Notes under the pieces: model-generated | The model's database searches: none | Told to the model about the DNA's origin: nothing | The model's input: only the letters and a program-made list of their open reading frames with translations | Source: Actinomycetales bacterium | Lineage (GTDB): Bacteria > Actinomycetota > Actinomycetes > Actinomycetales > CAWJMD01 | Reading direction: 5' to 3' | Assembly: GCA_039812305.1 (NCBI GenBank) | Contig: JBDIAG010000001.1 | Span: 1 to 31,648, forward strand | DNA: 31,648 bases | Position numbers and translations under genes: made by a program | Shown: positions 5,739 to 17,077 of the stretch, one piece after another | How the letters are laid out: every line of letters starts with the position of its first letter | Numbering within the stretch: the first letter of the stretch is position 1

Positions 5739-7478
5739 GTGTCTGAGACAAAGCGGTCTGAACGTCGCCTCTCCGCCACCGTGCTCGTGATCGGCACCGG
5801 TGGATCCGGCCTGCGGGCCGCCATCGAACTCGCCGAGGCGGGCGTCGACGCGCTCGTCGTCGGCAAACGTCCCAAGGCGGACGCCCATACCACCCTCGCC
5901 GCCGGCGGCATCAACGCCGCCCTCGCCACGATGGACCCGCAGGACTCGTGGCAGCAGCATGCGGCGGACACGATCACCGAGAGCTATCTGCTCGCCGACC
6001 CGCGCACGGTCGAGATCGTCACCCGCAACGCGGCGCGCGGCATCGAGGATCTCGAGCGGTACGGAATGCCCTTCGCGCGGGAGGACGACGGCCGGATCTC
6101 GCAGCGCTTCTTCGGGGCGCACACCTTCCGGCGGACCGCCTACAGCGGCGACTACACCGGTCTGGAGATCCAGCGGACGCTGCTCAACCGCGCGGCGCAG
6201 CTGAACGTCCCGATCATCGACTCGATGTACGTCACGCGGCTCCTGAGCCGCGACGGAGCCGTCTTCGGCGCCTACGGCTTCGACGTGGGCGACGGCACCC
6301 GGTACCTGATCCACGCCGACGCCGTCATCCTCGCCGCCGGCGGGCACAACCGGATCTGGCGGCGCACCTCCTCGCGGCGCGACGAGAACACCGGCGACTC
6401 GTTCCGGCTCGCGGTGGAAGCCGGTGCGAGACTGCGTGATCCGGAGCTCGTCCAATTCCACCCGTCCGGCATCCTCGAGCCCGAGAACGCGGCCGGGACG
6501 CTGGTCTCGGAGGCTGCCCGCGGCGAGGGCGGCATCCTCCGGAACGCGCTGGGCGAACGGTTCATGGAGCGCTACGACGCGGACCGGATGGAGCTGTCCA
6601 CCCGGGACCGGGTGGCCCTGGCCGAGTACACCGAGATCAAGGAGGGTCGTGGCACGCCGAAAGGCGGTGTCTGGCTGGATGTCTCGCATCTGCCGCGAGC
6701 CACGATCATGCGCAAGCTGCCGCGCGTCTACCAGACGCTCCTCGAACTGCAGATGCTCGACATCACCACGAGCCCGATCGAGATCGCGCCGACCGCGCAC
6801 TACTCGATGGGCGGGGTGTGGGTGCGTCCGGAGGATCACTCGACCGACGTGGCCGGCCTGTACGCCCTCGGCGAGGCCGCCAGCGGACTGCACGGCGCGA
6901 ACCGGCTGGGCGGCAACTCGCTGATCGAACTGCTCGTCTACGGACGGATCACCGCGGCGGCCGCGGCCGCCTACGCCGACGGGCTGGACGCCCAGCGCAG
7001 GTCGGCGGACGCGGTGGCGCGGGCGCGGGCCGAGGTGGACGACCTGCTCGCCGCGGACGGACCGGAGAACGTCCGGGCGCTGCAGCGGGCCGTCCGCGAC
7101 ATCATGACCGAGTACGCGGGCGTCGTCCGCGACGAAGCCGGGCTCGTCCGCGGGCTGGCCGAACTCGACGTGGTCGAGGAGCGCGTGGCGTCGGTCGGCG
7201 TGCACCCGGACCTGGCCGGCTATCAGGATCTGGCGCACGCCTTCGACCTCAAGGCCTCCATCCTGGCCGCCCGGGCGACCCTGCAGGCCGCCCTGGAGCG
7301 GCGTGAGACCCGCGGTTGCCACAACCGCGGCGACTACCCGAATCTGGATCCGGAACTGCAGGTGAACCTGGTCTGGAGCGGTGACGGCACGGTGACGCGG
7401 GAGGAGATCGCGCCCGTGCCGGCCGAGATCGCCGCGATGATGCACGAGGTGTCGAGCACCGGGAAGTTCGTCGAGTGA
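5739..7478 (+). CDS. Stand-alone SdhA/FrdA/NadB-family FAD-dependent oxidoreductase
   Basis: GTGGSG FAD loop, AHTTLAAGG (His at the covalent-FAD position), QFHPSG, SEAARGEG, STRDRVA, HYSMGG, LHGANRLGGNSL, RRETRGCH. No Fe-S subunit gene adjacent. Confidence 0.9.
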   Translation: MSETKRSERRLSATVLVIGTGGSGLRAAIELAEAGVDALVVGKRPKADAHTTLAAGGINAALATMDPQDSWQQHAADTITESYLLADPRTVEIVTRNAARGIEDLERYGMPFAREDDGRISQRFFGAHTFRRTAYSGDYTGLEIQRTLLNRAAQLNVPIIDSMYVTRLLSRDGAVFGAYGFDVGDGTRYLIHADAVILAAGGHNRIWRRTSSRRDENTGDSFRLAVEAGARLRDPELVQFHPSGILEPENAAGTLVSEAARGEGGILRNALGERFMERYDADRMELSTRDRVALAEYTEIKEGRGTPKGGVWLDVSHLPRATIMRKLPRVYQTLLELQMLDITTSPIEIAPTAHYSMGGVWVRPEDHSTDVAGLYALGEAASGLHGANRLGGNSLIELLVYGRITAAAAAAYADGLDAQRRSADAVARARAEVDDLLAADGPENVRALQRAVRDIMTEYAGVVRDEAGLVRGLAELDVVEERVASVGVHPDLAGYQDLAHAFDLKASILAARATLQAALERRETRGCHNRGDYPNLDPELQVNLVWSGDGTVTREEIAPVPAEIAAMMHEVSSTGKFVE

Positions 7479-7868
7479 TCAGCCGGCGTAGGTGCCGAAG
7501 CTCCAGGCGTTGCCGTCGTTGTCCCGGACGGCGAAATCGGTTGAGCCGTAGTCCGTCTCCCCGAGTTCGCGGATGATCGCGGCGCCCAGCGCCTGAGCCT
7601 TGGCGAAGACCTCCGCGGGCCGGTCGGTGACGACGTAGAGGGACGCCTTGCCCACCGGCACGTCGAAGTCGCTCTCCCGGAAGGTGGCGACCATCACCCG
7701 GCCTCCCTCCGGCCAGATCATCTCGGAGTGCTGCACGACGCCGTCGTCGTCGGCGACGAGAATGCCGTCGACGAAGCCGAGTTCGCGCAACCAGGCGCGC
7801 AGTGCGAGCGGGTCGTGGCTGCTGATGGCAGACCAGATGTTGTGATCCTGTACGGGTGTCTCACTCAT
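7479..7868 (-). CDS. VOC/glyoxalase-bleomycin resistance family protein
   Basis: HSEMIWPEGGRVMV and ETDYGSTDFAVRDNDGNAWSFGTY. Start ATG 7868 (MSETPVQ). Confidence 0.85.
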   Translation of the reverse strand: MSETPVQDHNIWSAISSHDPLALRAWLRELGFVDGILVADDDGVVQHSEMIWPEGGRVMVATFRESDFDVPVGKASLYVVTDRPAEVFAKAQALGAAIIRELGETDYGSTDFAVRDNDGNAWSFGTYAG

Positions 7869-7872
7869 GACT

Positions 7873-8871
7873 TCATCCTGACGCCGTGCCGTCGCCTCGT
7901 CTTGAACCTTTGGGAAGCGTCTGCCGTCGAGAGGCCACGACCCGCCGTCGGTCGGCACCCTCCACGGCGGGTTGCGACCCCTCGACCACCTCGACGTCGT
8001 GGGTGGTGGGGAAGACCTCGGTGGCCAGCCACTGGGTCGGGGTGCAGCCCGCCAGGTCGCGCCACTCCCGGGTGAGGTGGGCCTGGTCGGCGTAGCCGCA
8101 GGCCGCCGCGACGTCCGCCAGCCTCGGCGTGGGCGTCTGGCGCACCAGGCGGTGGGAGCGTTCGAACCGCATCACCCGCGCCGCGACCTTGGGCGGGTGG
8201 CCGAACTCGGCGCCGAACCGGGTGGTCAGCTGCCGCCGGGACCAGCCGACCCGCCGGGCGACCTCCGCGACCGGGAGCGTGCCGTCCGAACCGGCGAGCA
8301 GCCGCCAGGCGTGCCAGGTCGCCGGATCCCGCTGGCTGGCGCGTTCGAGCGACGACAGGCCGCGTTCCAGCCGTCCGACGAGGAGTTGCTCGACGAGGGC
8401 CACGCGGGTCGGCCAGTCCGGTGCGGCGGCGAGACCGTCCAGCAGGTGCCGGGCGCCGGCGCCGACGACGTCGGCCAGCGAGATGACGTGGCCGGCCAAC
8501 TCCGACGACGGCATTCCGAGCAGGGCGCGGGCGCCGGCGGGGGTGAGATCCACCTCGATGCCCGCCTGATGGCCGTCGTGATGGATGTGGACCGGCGAGT
8601 CGTGGATGCCGCCGACGAGGCCGGCGAACGGGGTCGGTTCGCGCAGCGGTCGGCCCGCTCCGTCGGCAGCCCGGCCGGAGATGACGATCGCGCTCTCGAA
8701 CGGCAGGATCAGGGTCAGCGACCGGGCCGGCATACCGACGTGGGTGCCGGCGGGGAATCCGGAGAGCTGGTAGCCGATGGTCGCGGTGAAGAAGGCGCGC
8801 GTGGCCCGCTGCCCGGGAACCCGGTGCAGATGGATCGCCGTCGGCTGCGCCGGGTGAGACCTCGCGTCCAC
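7873..8871 (-). CDS. AraC-family transcriptional regulator (C-terminus altered by an insertion)
   Basis: C-terminal HTH: [15 protein letters not shown]...[35 protein letters not shown] lies 6 nt upstream of GTG (leaderless-like). Confidence 0.88.
7926..7986. repeat. 61-bp REP-like palindrome, solo copy (inverted relative to the others)
   Basis: Minus strand reads gtcgaggggtcgcaacccgcc-19 nt-ggcgggtcgtggcctctcgac; same length and arm family as 13676-13736. Confidence 0.8.
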
Positions 8872-9531: not shown

Positions 9532-10559
9532 GGCTGCTGTTCGCCGGGACCCCGGAGGTCGCGGTTCCCGCCCTCCGGGCGTTGCTGGCGTCGCGCCACG
9601 AGGTGGTCGCGGTGCTCACCCGCCCGGACGCCCGAACCGGCCGGGGACGCCGGACCGCGCCCAGCCCGGTCCGGGTCGTCGCCGAGGACGCCGGGATCGA
9701 GGTGCTGACGCCGGTCACGTTGCGCGACCCCGAGGTGGTGGCCGCGATCGCCGCGCTGGACGTCGACTGTGCTCCCGTCGTCGCCTACGGAAATCTGGTT
9801 CCCGCTGCGCTGCTGGAGGTTCCGCGGCACGGCTGGGTGAATCTGCACTTCTCGCTGCTGCCCGCCTGGCGGGGGGCCGCGCCGGTGCAGCGCGCGATCA
9901 TCGCGGGCGACGCGACGACCGGGGCCAGCGTCTTCCAGCTGGAGGCCGGTCTGGACACGGGTCCCGTTTTCGCTAGCGTGCCTGAACCGATCGGGCCCTC
10001 GGACGACGCGGGCGCGTTGCTGGGCCGGCTCGCCGACCGTGGCGCGGGCCTGCTGGTGGACGTCCTGGACGGGCTGGAGGACGGGACCGCGGTGGCGACA
10101 CCTCAAGCCGCGGAAGGCGTCTCGCTGGCACCCAAGCTCGAGGTGGCCGACGCCCGGGTCGACTGGGCGGCCGATGCGGCGGTCGTCGACCGGCTGGTGC
10201 GGGGCTGCACGCCGGCCCCCGGAGCCTGGACGACCTTCCGCGGCGACCGGGTCCGTCTGGGACCGCTGCGGCTCGTCGGCGGGATGGACGGTGCTGCGCC
10301 ACGCGGCGTGTCGGCCGGGAGTTCTGCTTTCGGGGAGCCGGCGTCCCGGACGTCGATTTCGGGTGAGTCGACTTCGGGCGAGTCGACCTTGGGGGAGCTG
10401 GCGCCCGGGGAACTGTCGGTGACGAGCCGACGAGTGCTGATCGGGGCCGGGGACGGGCCGATGGAGCTGGGGATTGTGCGAGCGGCGGGGAAGAAGCCGA
10501 TGCCGGCCGCGGATTGGGCCCGTGGCGTGCGACCCGAGGTAGGGGAGAGATTCGAGTGA
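9528..10559 (+). CDS. fmt: Methionyl-tRNA formyltransferase
   Basis: [46 protein letters not shown] overlap with the def stop. Low-complexity insert near the C-terminus. Confidence 0.95.
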
Positions 10560-12634
10560 GTGGCGATGGTGGACGGCGACCTTCCGGCGGAGGTCGTGGT
10601 GGCTCCGGTGACCGTGGCCACGGCCGGGGTTCTGGCCAGGGTCGTGCTTCTGGCCAGGGGCGCGGCTCCGGCCAGGGACGTGACTGGGGCCGGGGCGGCG
10701 GCTCCGGCGGCGGACGCGATTCGGGTGGGGGCCGGGGTTCTGGCCGTGGTTCGGGCGAGGGTCGTGGTTCGGGCGAGAATCGCGGATCGGGCCAGGGGCG
10801 TGGTTGGGGCCAGGATGGCGGTTCCGATCGGGGTCGTGGTTGGGGCGAGGGCCGTGGGTCGCGTCGGGATGGCGGTTCCGGTGGGGGTCGTTCGAGTGAC
10901 GGGCGTGACTGGGGTCGAGGTGATGGTTCCGGTCGAGGTCGTGGTTCGGGTGAGGGCCGCGGGCCAGGCCAGGGGCGTGGTTGGGGTGACGGCCGTGGTT
11001 CGGCTGACGGGCGTGACTCGGGTCGGGGCGAGGGTTCCGATCGGGGTCGTGGTTGGGGCGAGGGCCGTGGGTCCGGCGAGGATCGTGCGGGCCAGGGGCG
11101 CGGCGCTGGCCGGGCGTACGGGTCCGGGCGGGACAAGCCGGGCCAGGGGCCGCGCCGGGATGATCGTCACGGGGGCCCACGTGCCCCGCGCCAGCGGTCG
11201 GCACAGGCTCCGGCGCAGCGGGCCAAGTCCGCTGATCCGGCGAGAACCGTTGCCTTCCAAGCGCTGCGAGCGGTCGACTCGGAGGACGCCTACGCCAATC
11301 TGGTGTTGCCCAAGCTGATCCGCCGGGCCCGGCTCGACACCCGGGACGCCGCGCTGGCCACCGAACTGGTCTATGGCACTCTTCGGTGGCGAGGACGCTA
11401 CGACGCCGTGCTCGAGGCCTGTACCGATCGTCCGCTGGCCACCCTCGACGCGCCGGTGCTGGACGCTCTACGGCTCGGAGCGCATCAGCTGCTGGCCACC
11501 CGGATTCCGCCGCACGCCGCGGTGTCGGCCACGGTCGGCCTGGCGCGGTCCGAGATCGGGTCCGGCCCGTCCGGCTTCATCAACGCCGTACTGCGCAGGG
11601 TGGGCGAGCGGGACGCCGAGACCTGGCTCGGCGAGCTGACCGAAGGCCTGACGACGCTCGAGGCGCTCGCCATGCGGGAGTCGCATCCGGCCTGGATCGT
11701 CCGTGCTCTGCGGGAATCCCTTGTCTTGCATGGCCGTTCGGTGGCCGAGCTGCCGCAGCTGTTGGCCGCCGACAACCTGGCGCCGCTGGTGAGCCTGCTG
11801 GCACGACCGGGACTGTGCACCGTGGAGGAACTGGTCGCCGCCGGGGCCGAGCCGGGCCGCTGGTCCGCCTACGCGGCCACGCTGCCTTCCGGGGATCCGG
11901 GGCGGATCGAGGCGGTGGCGGAGCGACGCGCCCGCGTGCAGGACGAGGGCAGTCAGTTGGTGGCTCTCGCCCTGGCGGGAGTCGAACTACCGGGAGCCGA
12001 CCGGGACGCGGGTGCAGCCGGCACGGACGCAGGTGGAACCGACCCAGACACCCGCTGGCTGGATCTCTGCGCGGGGCCGGGCGGCAAGACCGCCCTGCTG
12101 GCCGCCCTGGCCACCGAGCGTGGGGCCCGGGTCACCGCCGTCGAGGTGGCGCCGCACCGCGCCGAACTGGTGAGTTCGGGTCTGCTGGAGACCGACCCGG
12201 TCGAGGTGATCACCGCCGACGGTCGCACCTTCGGAGACGACCACGCGGCCTCCTACGACCGGGTGCTCGTGGACGCTCCCTGCACCGGACTGGGTGCCCT
12301 GCGCCGACGTCCGGAGGCCAGGTGGCGGCGCCAGCCCGGCGATCTCGCGACCTTGGCCCCACTGCAGCGCGCGCTGCTCGACTCGGCCCTGGCCGCCTGC
12401 CGTCCGGGTGGCGTGGTCGCCTACGCGACCTGCTCGCCGCACCCCGCCGAGACCCTGCTGGTGATCGAGGACGCGCAACGCCGCCACCCCGGCCTCCGCC
12501 TGCTCGATGCCCCCGCCGCGATCCGCCGGGCCGCCGACAAGGATCTGGGCGACCTGGGCACCGGCCCCACCGCCCAACTCTGGCCCCACCACCACGGCAC
12601 GGACGCCATGTTCCTGGCTCTCCTCACTCCGTGA
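10556..12634 (+). CDS. rsmB: RsmB/NOP2-family 16S rRNA m5C methyltransferase with a ~200-aa Gly/Arg-rich N-terminal extension
   Basis: NusB-like domain (AYANLVLP...[10 protein letters not shown]), [31 protein letters not shown] 10556 overlaps the fmt stop (GTGA). Confidence 0.9.
10622..11131 (+). repeat. Coding tandem repeat, about 28 x 18 bp (GRG[S/W]G[Q/E/D/R])
   Basis: Translation in the rsmB frame: [24 protein letters not shown] ... [12 protein letters not shown]; units are diverged at synonymous sites. Confidence 0.9.
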
Positions 12635-12646
12635 CCCCCAACCTCC

Positions 12647-12707
12647 GTCGAGGGGTCACAACACGCCCCAAAATCGCCGGAATCAGGGCGTGTCGTGACC
12701 CCTCGTT
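12647..12707. repeat. 61-bp REP-like palindrome, left flank of the nuclease gene
   Basis: gtcgaggggtcacaacacgcc-ccaaaatcgccggaatcag-ggcgtgtcgtgacccctcg; 20-bp arms with 1 mismatch. Confidence 0.92.
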
Positions 12708-12755
12708 TGAGGCCTGTGGATAGCGAGAGCACGATGTTGCGATTGCCGCCACCCT

Positions 12756-13700
12756 ATGGGCGTGGCAGGTACACCTCTTCCGGACGGATTCGACGCCCGG
12801 CCGTTCCGGGTCACGGAGGCGCTGGGTAGCGGCCTGACCCGGCGCCGGCTTCGTCAACCGGATCTGGTCGCTCCGACCCCCGGCGTGCGGACCGGCCGGG
12901 AACCGACGTCCCTGGCCGAGCTCGTGCGAGTCTTCGCTGTGGCGTTGCCCGACGGCGTGGCGTTCTCGCATCTCACCGCGGCCCGTCTGCTGGGTATCCC
13001 GCTGCCCATGGCCGTCGAACAAGAGATCTCATCGCTCGACGTGATGTGCCGATCGACGGCCACCCGGATCCGCAGGACGGGATGCCTCGGTCACCGAGGC
13101 CTGGAGCTGCGCGACACCGTCCAGCACAGCGGGGTTCGGGTCACCGGGCTCGCGGACACCTGGATCGATCTCGGAGAGGTGATGGATCGAGGTCTCGGCC
13201 TCGACGATCTCATCGTCGCCGGGGACTACGTCGCCGGCCGGCTCCGCACCACGGATCCGCTCAGGCAGCGGCTGGACCGCAGAACCCGTCCCCGGGGCAA
13301 GAGGTTCCTGACGGCCGCGCTGCGGGAGATCCGGGTGGGAGTCCTCTCGCCCATGGAGACCCGGGCCAGGCTGATGTTCGTCCGGGCCGGGCTGGCGCAG
13401 CCGGAGGTCAATGCCACCGTCGACGACTGGGCCGGGGAGTGGCTCATGATGGGAGACCTGGTGTGGCGTCGTCCGCGCGTGGTCGTGGAGTATCAAGGCT
13501 CGGTACACGCGCCGATCGAACAGCGCTCGATCGACGCGCAGCGCCGCGACCTGGCCGAGTCGAATGGATGGCTGTTCATCGAGATGTTCAAGGAAGACGT
13601 CTACCGTCCCGCACGACGTGCCCAGCTCATCACCCGTCTCCGTGTCGCGCTCACCCGCAACTCCGACCTGCGCCCGTCGAGGGGTCACAACACGCCGTGA
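12756..13700 (+). CDS. DUF559/Vsr-like (PD-(D/E)XK) putative endonuclease with AbiEi-like N-terminal region (Rv1482c/Rv3714c-like family)
   Basis: N-terminal [15 protein letters not shown]...[15 protein letters not shown]; C-terminal [21 protein letters not shown]...DLVW...VVVEYQG..H...D..R....GW. The stop codon lies inside the right palindrome. Confidence 0.8.
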
Positions 13701-13736
13701 AACGGCCGGAATCGGGGCGTGTTGTGACCCCTCGAC
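13676..13736. repeat. 61-bp REP-like palindrome, right flank of the nuclease gene (perfect arms)
   Basis: gtcgaggggtcacaacacgcc-gtgaaacggccggaatcgg-ggcgtgttgtgacccctcgac; perfect 21-bp inverted repeat. Confidence 0.95.
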
Positions 13737-13753
13737 AGGTTAGGTTGGCGCCT

Positions 13754-14422
13754 ATGGGCGTCCAGATCTCACCGAGCATCCTGAACAGTGACTTCTCCGA
13801 TCTCCGTGGCGAGTTGGAGAAGATCGCGTCGGCCGACTGGGCCCACATCGACGTGATGGACAACCATTTCGTGCCCAATCTGACGCTCGGACTCCCGGTG
13901 GTGGAGAGGATCCTGGACGTCAGCCCGGTGCCGGTCGACTGCCACCTGATGATCGAGGACCCGGACCGCTGGGCGCCGGGGTACGCCGAGGCGGGGGCCC
14001 AGTCGGTGACCTTCCACGTCGAGGCGGCCACGGCGCCGATCCGGCTGGCCCGGGAGTTGCGGCGGCTGGGAGCCCGCGCGGGGATGGCGCTGCGTCCGGC
14101 GACCCCGGTGGAACCGTTCCTGGACCTGCTGCCCGAGATGGACATGCTCCTCGTGATGACCGTCGAGCCGGGTTTCGGCGGACAGAAGTTCCTCGACGTC
14201 TGCCTGCCCAAGGTGCGTCGGGCTCGCGCGGCGATCGAGGAGGCCGGCCTGGAGGTCTGGGTGCAGGTGGACGGCGGCGTCTCGACGGAGACCATCGAGC
14301 GGGCCGCCGAGGCGGGCGCGGACGTTTTCGTGGCCGGTTCGGCCGTCTACGGAGCCGACGACGCGTTCGCCGCGATCGCCGATCTCCGCAAGCTGGCGGA
14401 GTCCTGCGCGGCCGGCGGGTGA
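13754..14422 (+). CDS. rpe: Ribulose-phosphate 3-epimerase
   Basis: [49 protein letters not shown] lies 7 nt before ATG (leaderless-like). Confidence 0.96.
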
Positions 14423-16144: not shown

Positions 16145-16363
16145 ATGGGATGGACCTGGAAGTTCCACGACGCGGCCGGCGGCGACCTCACCACGACGGC
16201 CGACACGAGCATGACCGACACCGACTTCCCGACGCAGGCGGACGCCGAATCCTGGGTCGGGGAGGAATGGCACAACCTGGTCGCCGACGGTGTCGATTCG
16301 GTCACCCTCTACGAGGACGGCGACCGTCGCTACGGCCCGATGTCCCTGCGCCCGGCGGAATAG
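16145..16363 (+). CDS. Small conserved actinobacterial hypothetical protein
   Basis: MGWTWKF...FPTQADAESWVGEEW..L...GVDSVTLYE...YGPMSL; GC3-biased codons. Confidence 0.7.
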   Translation: MGWTWKFHDAAGGDLTTTADTSMTDTDFPTQADAESWVGEEWHNLVADGVDSVTLYEDGDRRYGPMSLRPAE

Positions 16364-16374
16364 CCCCGGCGGAG

Positions 16375-16435
16375 AACGAGGAGTCACAACACGCCGTGAA
16401 CCTGAGTTCTCCAGGGCGTGTTGCGACCCCTCGAC
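16375..16435. repeat. 61-bp REP-like palindrome, solo copy between convergent genes
   Basis: aacgaggagtcacaacacgcc-gtgaacctgagttctccag-ggcgtgttgcgacccctcgac; 19-nt spacer. Confidence 0.9.
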
Positions 16436-16468: not shown

Positions 16469-17077
16469 CTAGCGACGAGGCGCCTCGCCGCGGGCGACGG
16501 CGGGACGGGGGAGACGCCAGCGACGGATCTGCAGGGCCCGGGAGACGCCGTAGGCGACGTGGCCCTTCGGGTTGAAGTCCTCCCCGAAGCGCTCCTTCAG
16601 TCGCTTGCGCAGCAGGCGAGCGAGACGGGTGCAGTCGAGGACGACCAGCAGGATGGTGCCCCACAGCACCGCGGTCGAGATCAGCTGGAAGCGTGCGGCG
16701 TTCTCCACCGTCAGACCCAGGAGCTGCGGGCCCAGCACCAGCACGATCGCGGCGAACGCCAGCAGCAGATAGAACTCGCCGACGTTCCAGCGGCCGTCGA
16801 CGACATCGCGGACGTAGCGGCGCACCGGGCCCGCGTCGCGCGGACCGAGGCCACGCTCGTCGCCGGAGTAGAGCGCCTGACGTTGTGACTCCCGCTGAGA
16901 CCGGGCACGTTCGCGATCCCGCTTGGCGGCCGCCTTGCGGTCGGTGGGCACCATCGGACGCTTGCGGGCCTGCTCACGCTCCTTGCGGGTGGGCGTGGGG
17001 CGGTTCTTAGCGCCCGGCCGTTCAGGGGCGGCGGGCGCCGGGGCCTCGGGAGTTTCCTGCTTCTTGCGTCCAAACAC
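16469..17077 (-). CDS. DUF3043 family membrane protein
   Basis: GAKNRPTPTRKE, RDAGPVRRYVRDVVDGRWNVGEF, RALQIRRWRLPRP. TAGGAT lies 6 nt before GTG. Confidence 0.88.
   Translation of the reverse strand: MFGRKKQETPEAPAPAAPERPGAKNRPTPTRKEREQARKRPMVPTDRKAAAKRDRERARSQRESQRQALYSGDERGLGPRDAGPVRRYVRDVVDGRWNVGEFYLLLAFAAIVLVLGPQLLGLTVENAARFQLISTAVLWGTILLVVLDCTRLARLLRKRLKERFGEDFNPKGHVAYGVSRALQIRRWRLPRPAVARGEAPRR

Follow-up and report, generated by a model that had tools for sequence, protein, structure and literature searches.

A Vsr-like nuclease gene between two copies of one palindrome: a candidate counterpart of the REP/RAYT partnership in Actinomycetota

How does a nuclease gene come to lie between two nearly identical 61-nt palindromes in a normally tight intergenic junction, and do these palindromes belong to the gene or to the site? 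The question is raised by contig JBDIAG010000001.1, which at its entire length of 31,648 nt (31.6 kb) is the window analysed here. The assembly to which it belongs (740 contigs, 4.64 Mb, 69.5% G+C) comes from an actinobacterium of activated sludge that was placed in the Intrasporangiaceae/Dermatophilaceae group. Between rsmB and rpe the window contains a unit of 1,090 bp (12647-13736) comprised of a palindrome, a nuclease gene and a second palindrome. A first-pass annotation had proposed that this unit was a mobile module pairing a nuclease with repetitive extragenic palindrome (REP)-like repeats. That proposal was supported by the enrichment of hairpins in the flanks of the gene, by palindrome pairs around its homologs, by the co-variation of gene and palindrome type, and by empty sites in relatives. 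The reading favored here, with a probability of roughly 0.6, is that the unit is a repeat-and-enzyme partnership that works like REP sequences and their REP-associated tyrosine transposases (RAYTs), with an unrelated enzyme.

The left palindrome (12647-12707) began 12 nt past the rsmB stop codon and had 21-nt arms and a 19-nt loop. It was followed by a 48-nt leader (12708-12755, plus strand), in which the promoter is presumed to lie, and by the nuclease gene (12756-13700, plus strand; 314 aa). The right palindrome (13676-13736) had perfect 21-nt arms, overlapped the 3' end of the gene, and ended 17 nt before the rpe start codon. The two copies were 89% identical (12645-12705 versus 13674-13734), and their loops, which had GCCGGAATC in common, pointed in the same direction, making the copies direct repeats. 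The arm occurred with no mismatches at 12647, 13676, and 13716 (minus strand); the right arm of the left copy had three mismatches. In total, seven arm matches were found in the window and none in 100 window shuffles, and the single-stranded folding of the two copies was far better than that of shuffled sequence (z of -6.2 and -7.9). The picture drawn beforehand, of a DUF559-like 314-aa open reading frame (ORF) between rsmB and rpe that was bracketed by same-orientation 61-bp palindromes with shared arms and a partly common 19-nt spacer, agreed with these coordinates, with the 89% identity, and with the three exact arm matches. Given 28 palindrome loci and approximately 4,100 predicted genes in the genome, the probability that a single gene would have a copy on both sides by chance was estimated at about 5e-5.

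The nuclease ORF extended across the left arm of the right-hand copy to a TGA inside the loop (13698-13700), which bore out the earlier observation that the gene has no stop codon of its own. Altogether, the right palindrome provided the last eight codons and the TGA. Homologs share a conserved C-terminal LDPxxLxI tail, and the last residues of the window protein are instead encoded by the palindrome; the reading frame entered the downstream palindrome in seven other loci too. The leader (12708-12755) contained no match to the sigma-70 consensus. No terminator-like site, defined as a GC-rich hairpin with a T-tract, was found in 12500-13900, a result with which actinobacterial terminators lacking U-tracts remain compatible.

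The same arrangement existed in other genomes. The four nearest database homologs (54-59% identity) lay in two other neighborhoods, each gene accompanied by two palindromes of about 60 nt whose sequence was specific to the genome. A scan of species-representative genomes added 49 further loci. Carriers included Knoellia, Janibacter, Phycicoccus, Pedococcus, Terrabacter, Ornithinibacter, Nostocoides, Oryzobacter, Fodinibacter, and metagenome-assembled genomes (MAGs). With a strict hairpin finder, a matching palindrome pair was found around the gene in 34 of 54 loci within the Intrasporangiaceae; among the loci with no strict pair, five were cut by contig ends and several had one degenerate copy. 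The units were mostly 1,145-1,230 nt long. In these homologous loci the upstream copy ended mostly 52-95 nt before the start codon, and the downstream copy started 4-40 nt past the stop codon or overlapped it. The expectation that DUF559 genes of relatives would have flanking palindromes thus held for the homologous loci, and distant paralogs carried unrelated pairs. Palindromes of this type did not adjoin the other two weak DUF559 matches of this genome, one of which had a different hairpin upstream. In Janibacter and Knoellia locipacati, copies of the gene with frameshifts or internal deletions kept their flanking palindromes.

In 53 loci, hairpins with stems of at least 18 pairs had a density of 1.98 per kb beside the gene (75 hairpins) and of 0.03 per kb in control DNA from these same loci (7 hairpins), a 62-fold difference, and none of the seven control hairpins was of this palindrome family. 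Stem mismatches counted on the sense strand of the gene (31 G-T and 48 A-C) were too weak a signal to tell which strand folds. The loci fell into 11 neighborhood clusters in addition to that of the window; these 12 contexts are single-linkage clusters that count neighborhoods and not exact sites, and the largest of them contained internal rearrangement. At shared neighborhoods the unit had the same orientation in all 183 locus pairs. Programmed inversion, which was considered as a function for the unit, was rejected, as none of these 183 pairs was flipped.

Some loci had additional hairpins. A hairpin of about 50 nt (GGTGGTGTGGCTGGAGAC...GTCTCCAGCCACACCACC), situated about 120 nt upstream of the left palindrome, was conserved in five loci of one neighborhood cluster (L049, L053, L072, L087, and L094), and a second conserved hairpin (GTGCCGCAGGGC...GCCCTGCGGCAC) recurred in L071, L077, L083, L092, and L095. 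Upstream of the homolog of Phycicoccus sp. CSK15P-2, the expected place of the left palindrome was taken by 76 nt of nearly pure G and then C (L084:2362-2437), which may be an assembly artefact.

The palindromes of the gene family shared a common form: GTCGAG, a 7-nt core, RACAYGC, a loop, and the mirror image. The core varied by genome and by paralog. Paralogs of Pedococcus bigeumensis had the cores AGTGCAC and TGGCCAC, those of Knoellia pratensis ATAGACC and ATAGCGC, and those of Janibacter GTAGTAC and AGGAGAG. Paralogs at 29-44% identity had quite unrelated palindrome pairs, with 11 clear cases. Core types mostly tracked clades in the protein tree. Two sister proteins at the same site (between a GSDH gene and a hypothetical gene) had cores that differed at four positions, and the change was present, with its complement, on every arm of both the upstream and downstream copies, i.e., it was a concerted change. 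The suggestion that nuclease and palindrome sequence types would co-vary was supported, in that the type followed the gene copy even among paralogs of one genome.

A generic pattern for the family was fixed before the genomes were run, and the same pattern read backward served as a control. The family pattern had 5-14 matches in each of five gene-bearing genomes and 11 in the genome of the window; the backward pattern had zero. Overall, the pattern was present in all six gene-bearing genomes and in none of 30 relatives with no close homolog, a set with ten genomes from the same family, two from the same genus, and 22 that were at least 90% complete. Among 48 strict-pattern copies in the six genomes, 43 had a core type that also flanked a resident gene.

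Within the genome of the window, an nhmmer profile found 28 loci of the palindrome type, about 26 of them besides the window pair. The real copies were of one type and of fixed length: TCGAG, a GGGTCRY core, RACACGC, a 21-nt interior, and the mirror image. According to gene positions from a simple gene finder that used third-codon-position G+C content, 14 copies lay between convergent genes, 9-10 after the upstream gene of a tandem pair, and three in divergent intergenic regions. In total, 24 of the 28 loci were directly after the 3' end of a gene, most of them 5-30 nt from the stop codon. The nuclease gene was the sole member of its protein family in this genome. It had been reasoned that palindromes spread genome-wide and not enriched beside such genes would speak against a module; the palindromes were indeed dispersed over 28 loci, and the flanks of this gene family were strongly enriched all the same (1.98 versus 0.03 per kb). 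No RAYT was found, as PF01797 had no match in the genome (78% complete), and the palindrome produced only noise matches to miRNA models in Rfam. Genomes of the same genus were 69-81% identical in the genes flanking solo copies, with intergenic regions that could not be aligned and insertion ends that were consequently undefined.

Two of the solo copies were in the window. One, of the same type (16375-16435), was situated between the convergent ORFs 16145-16363 (plus strand) and 16469-16825 (minus strand). The other was a degenerate copy with the variant ACCCGCC/GGCGGGT (7926-7986), and it overlapped the 3' end of the minus-strand ORF 7873-8871, whose last codons and stop may likewise come from the palindrome, as in the nuclease gene. 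On contig C46, a distant DUF559-like gene (6732-7637; 301 aa) had a 66-nt hairpin of its own (6606-6671) with a 20-bp stem, 61 nt before the start codon; no downstream copy of this hairpin was detected. Contig C45 was considered as the site of a second, decayed nuclease copy; this candidate was rejected, as the DNA between the two palindromes of that contig contained no homolog of the nuclease and a Fic/DOC ORF lay there instead.

The rsmB gene (10514-12634, plus strand; NusB and RsmB/F methyltransferase domains in Pfam) and the rpe gene for ribulose-phosphate 3-epimerase (13754-14422, plus strand; identified with Pfam) lay outside the unit on its left and right. In 12 of 20 relatives the two genes were directly adjacent, about 25-150 nt apart, with no palindrome of this type, in keeping with the usual adjacency of rsmB and rpe in actinobacteria and with the prediction of empty sites. 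The other eight had different DNA at the junction, in the form of unrelated insertions of 1.2-9.6 kb (L013-L020): a pyridine-nucleotide oxidoreductase in one genome of the same genus, 9.6 kb in the other genome of the same genus, and a methyltransferase with a PIG-L deacetylase in another genus. The nuclease gene was present at this junction in none of the 20 relatives, and no relative had a solo palindrome there. The intergenic remainder outside the unit was 12 + 17 nt in the window, so that what was inserted into this normally tight junction is the 1,090-bp unit itself. Among public reads the stretch was found only in Logan contigs of activated-sludge runs, where relatives join rsmB to rpe; these contigs contained no informative joint from the organism of the window. 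One 321-nt rsmB-rpe spacer (L029:615-935, in genome G022) contained tandem hairpin repeats of a different repeat family (AAGGGGTCACCTGCGGCAC / GTGAGGGGTCTTGTGCGGCAC).

A second empty site was found in Pedococcus. The site occupied by unit L061 was unoccupied in another strain and in one MAG, where about 140 nt with an unrelated hairpin took its place. At one convergent intergenic site (L118:1361-1500 and L119:3509-3656), three related genomes had three different hairpins: one had the nuclease unit, and the other two had unrelated palindromes. This suggests that hairpin elements turn over at fixed gene-end slots.

The protein itself was difficult to classify by profile. Its PF04480 (DUF559) score in Pfam was 17.5 bits, below the gathering cut-off of 20.6, and 7 of 36 homologs reached an E-value of 0.01 or lower for this family; judged by these scores, the protein is a divergent DUF559 subfamily. 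NCBIfam and PADLOC had no match for it. A structure model built on the 36 homologs had a predicted local distance difference test (pLDDT) score of 92.8 and comprised two parts. All-against-all structure comparison matched residues 196-304, a Vsr/DUF559/EDxHD-type PD-(D/E)XK nuclease domain, to the catalytic domain of I-Bth0305I (3r3p; Z 12.3), to the DUF559 protein NGO0050 (3hrl; Z 11.9), and to Vsr (1cw0; Z 10.5). Residues 4-193, a winged-helix module, matched the whole of the AbiEi antitoxin 6y8q (Z 12.1) and Rv2827c (Z 8.8). Foldseek concurred with this two-part assignment. The weak PF04480 call was thus confirmed by the fold: the DUF559/Vsr-like identity named in the first-pass annotation stands on structure (Z 10.5-12.3) and fell short on the profile score.

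E201, D234, E245, H251, and D260 were invariant across the 36 homologs and aligned with the E/D/H/D set of DUF559 (3hrl). Because the catalytic residues are conserved and aligned, the modeled protein is likely an active nuclease. Their mapping to I-Bth0305I and Vsr follows motif spacing and published work (PMC3239194) and not residue-level superposition; by this mapping, Q247 occupies the position of H64 in Vsr, N208 in I-Bth0305I, and the D of DUF559.

On these findings a mechanism can be outlined. The flanking 61-nt palindromes would be the cognate sites of the encoded nuclease. The winged-helix module, probably as a dimer, would read the palindrome arms, in which a variable 7-nt core lies between a conserved outer end (GTCGAG) and a conserved inner end (RACAYGC), and the Vsr-type domain would cut at or in the palindrome. 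Host repair or copying after the cut could keep the arms alike, and the same cutting and repair could multiply solo copies and occasionally move the whole unit. By analogy, a duplex-binding dimer is plausible because I-Bth0305I, the nearest characterized nuclease, is a homodimer with a footprint of about 60 bp on a pseudopalindrome. In its most specific form, which is advanced tentatively and as somewhat less probable than an even chance, the AbiEi-Vsr-type protein would represent a new class of palindrome-handling enzymes outside the HUH type: a winged-helix dimer that reads the 7-nt core as a code and whose nuclease cuts the palindrome, perhaps in the form of an extruded hairpin or where the arms mismatch, after which repair homogenizes the arms and seeds both new solo copies and new gene sites. 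If so, the REP-like repeats of actinobacteria would have a dedicated enzyme family that is many paralogs deep, each paralog with a private repeat.

Several observations weigh against a partnership of gene and palindrome. One Terrabacter clade (L064, L067, and L076), alone among the loci, has the gene with no palindromes. The compared genomes are kin, so that the co-occurrence in six of six versus none of 30 genomes is a pattern and not a P-value. Linked DNA would co-vary with a functionless gene too, and the match of flank to gene alone is weak evidence; the solo copies and the co-occurrence across genomes are the stronger evidence. The cores GGGTCAC and TGGCCAC each occurred in two clades of the protein tree, and some genomes had a few solo copies with no cognate intact gene (e.g., AGGAGAG in Knoellia pratensis). 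Solo copies occupied terminator-type positions. On contig C45 (4939-6029), two degenerate copies 1,091 nt apart, a spacing equal to the length of the window unit, bracketed an ORF of the Fic/DOC family (L127:1040-2130; 170 aa, PF02661, E 5.6e-9) and shared about 25 nt of 3' flank besides the palindrome. This ORF may be a further cargo captured at the palindrome, and the case may mean that the palindromes are general insertion sites. The assembly, finally, was rated 78% complete and is in 740 contigs.

The Fic/DOC case is the best argument for a passive association, in which REP-like or terminator hairpins spread by other means and act as hot spots where foreign genes arrive with duplication of the hairpin, the nuclease gene being a frequent passenger. 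Such hot spots would also fit the location of solo copies immediately past stop codons (three in divergent intergenic regions, against 14 in convergent and 9-10 in tandem ones), the unrelated insertions at rsmB-rpe in eight of 20 relatives, and the different hairpins found at one intergenic site in different genomes. They would not explain why more than 40 loci of one protein family, distant paralogs included, have a matching pair when control DNA has almost none, why palindrome types are specific to paralogs within one genome, or why gene and pattern co-occur in six of six genomes and in none of 30; the T-tract signature of a terminator was, moreover, absent from 12500-13900. Passive association is accordingly regarded as improbable. 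Much the same standing is given to a regulatory or defense role, in which the protein would be an AbiEi-type autoregulator with the upstream palindrome as its operator, the nuclease a toxin or anti-phage effector, and the downstream copy a terminator. AbiEi antitoxins bind inverted repeats in their own promoters, the N-terminal 190 residues contain a complete AbiEi fold, 48 nt separate the upstream palindrome from the start codon, a spacing at which an operator could lie, and the paralog on C46 has an upstream hairpin only. An operator role, however, would call neither for an identical copy past the stop codon nor for the 26 that follow unrelated genes at their 3' ends. No AbiEii-type partner adjoins the gene, whose neighbors are rsmB and rpe, PADLOC gave no match, and pseudogenized genes with retained flanks resemble selfish DNA, all of which makes this role a doubtful one.

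Homing or cut-and-paste movement deserves more weight than these two and is still considered unlikely. Here the nuclease would cut solo palindromes and the gene would be copied or pasted in by repair against the flanking copies, so that solo copies would be targets and footprints, like the solo long terminal repeats left by recombination, in this case of 61-nt direct repeats, as opposed to products dispersed in trans. The nuclease domain with the closest solved structure belongs to a homodimeric homing endonuclease with a footprint of about 60 bp, conserved sites exist both with and without the unit, several copies plus decayed copies occur per genome, and the flanking copies are direct repeats able to recombine to one. 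That one core type is found in different protein clades would be expected if incoming genes adopt resident palindromes. Homing nevertheless leaves the arrival of palindromes at new sites unexplained, and it fits poorly with an unoccupied L061 site that has an unrelated hairpin and no solo copy of that type, with the lack of a solo palindrome at rsmB-rpe in any relative, and with 26 solo copies for one gene in this genome. The loop halves of the window copies also lacked the chimeric pattern expected from a central cut and insertion.

The partnership of repeat and enzyme would have consequences beyond this locus. HUH-type RAYTs, which are found mostly in Proteobacteria, are the enzyme family known to make and keep REP-type repeats, and we know of no enzyme partner for the many palindromic repeats of Actinomycetota. 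A large protein family with no function so far (AbiEi-like plus DUF559, often annotated as "hypothetical") is here tied to private palindrome families, by locus and by genome; the proteins gain a testable function and the repeats a candidate maker. The variants of the 7-nt core offer natural matched protein-DNA pairs in which the evolution of specificity can be studied. Annotation is affected as well: operons such as fmt-rsmB-rpe are interrupted by the unit, genes take their stop codons from it, and hairpins stay behind at the ends of genes.

Searches of the literature on DUF559 with palindromes, AbiEi, mobility, or inverted repeats, and on REP/RAYT with Actinobacteria or novel endonucleases, found no description of such a system. 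The recurrence of the unit in dozens of related actinobacteria, with a palindrome version particular to each, points to a counterpart of REP/RAYT that is so far undescribed. The closest published accounts are the RAYT literature and, in a study of programmed inversion, a single table row in which "DUF559 domain-containing protein" was 14-fold enriched among genes with flanking inverted repeats, i.e., predicted inversion targets (PMC9881135). The enrichment in that table probably reflects the same repeats seen from another angle. Unlike inversion targets, the unit always had one orientation at shared neighborhoods.

Among characterized proteins, I-Bth0305I is an EDxHD/Vsr-like homing endonuclease that acts as a homodimer with a footprint of about 60 bp around a pseudopalindromic site (PMC3239194). 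The window protein resembles it in its nuclease fold (Z 12.3), its E/D/H/D residues, and its multidomain build with an N-terminal DNA-binding part; the footprint corresponds to the size of the palindrome, and both systems are present or absent at conserved host sites. It differs in that the gene is free-standing and intergenic rather than inside an intron or intein, in its AbiEi-type N-terminal domain, and in that it lies between two intact putative target sites, where a homing gene would split one. The fold of residues 4-193 is that of AbiEi antitoxins of type IV toxin-antitoxin systems (6y8q and Rv2827c), but an AbiEii nucleotidyltransferase partner is missing, and the C-terminus carries a fused nuclease domain. 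With IS200/IS605 elements the unit shares a length of about 1 kb, hairpin-forming ends, a single enzyme gene, and no obvious target-site duplication. Unlike those elements, it has neither a Y1 transposase nor TnpB, no conserved target motif was seen at its flanks, and its ends are near-perfect 61-nt palindromes of identical sequence.

The closest parallel is with the REP/REPIN-RAYT systems (REPtrons) of Proteobacteria. In both, a single enzyme gene lies between copies of a short palindromic repeat of its own, the flanking repeat is also dispersed in intergenic DNA at the 3' ends of genes, each enzyme copy has its own version of the repeat, and repeat and enzyme co-occur across genomes. The systems differ in the enzyme, which here is an AbiEi-like winged helix joined to a Vsr-type PD-(D/E)XK nuclease instead of a Y1/HUH transposase, in the low copy number of the repeat (about 5-30 per genome), in the flanking copies being direct repeats by loop orientation, and in the host phylum, Actinomycetota.

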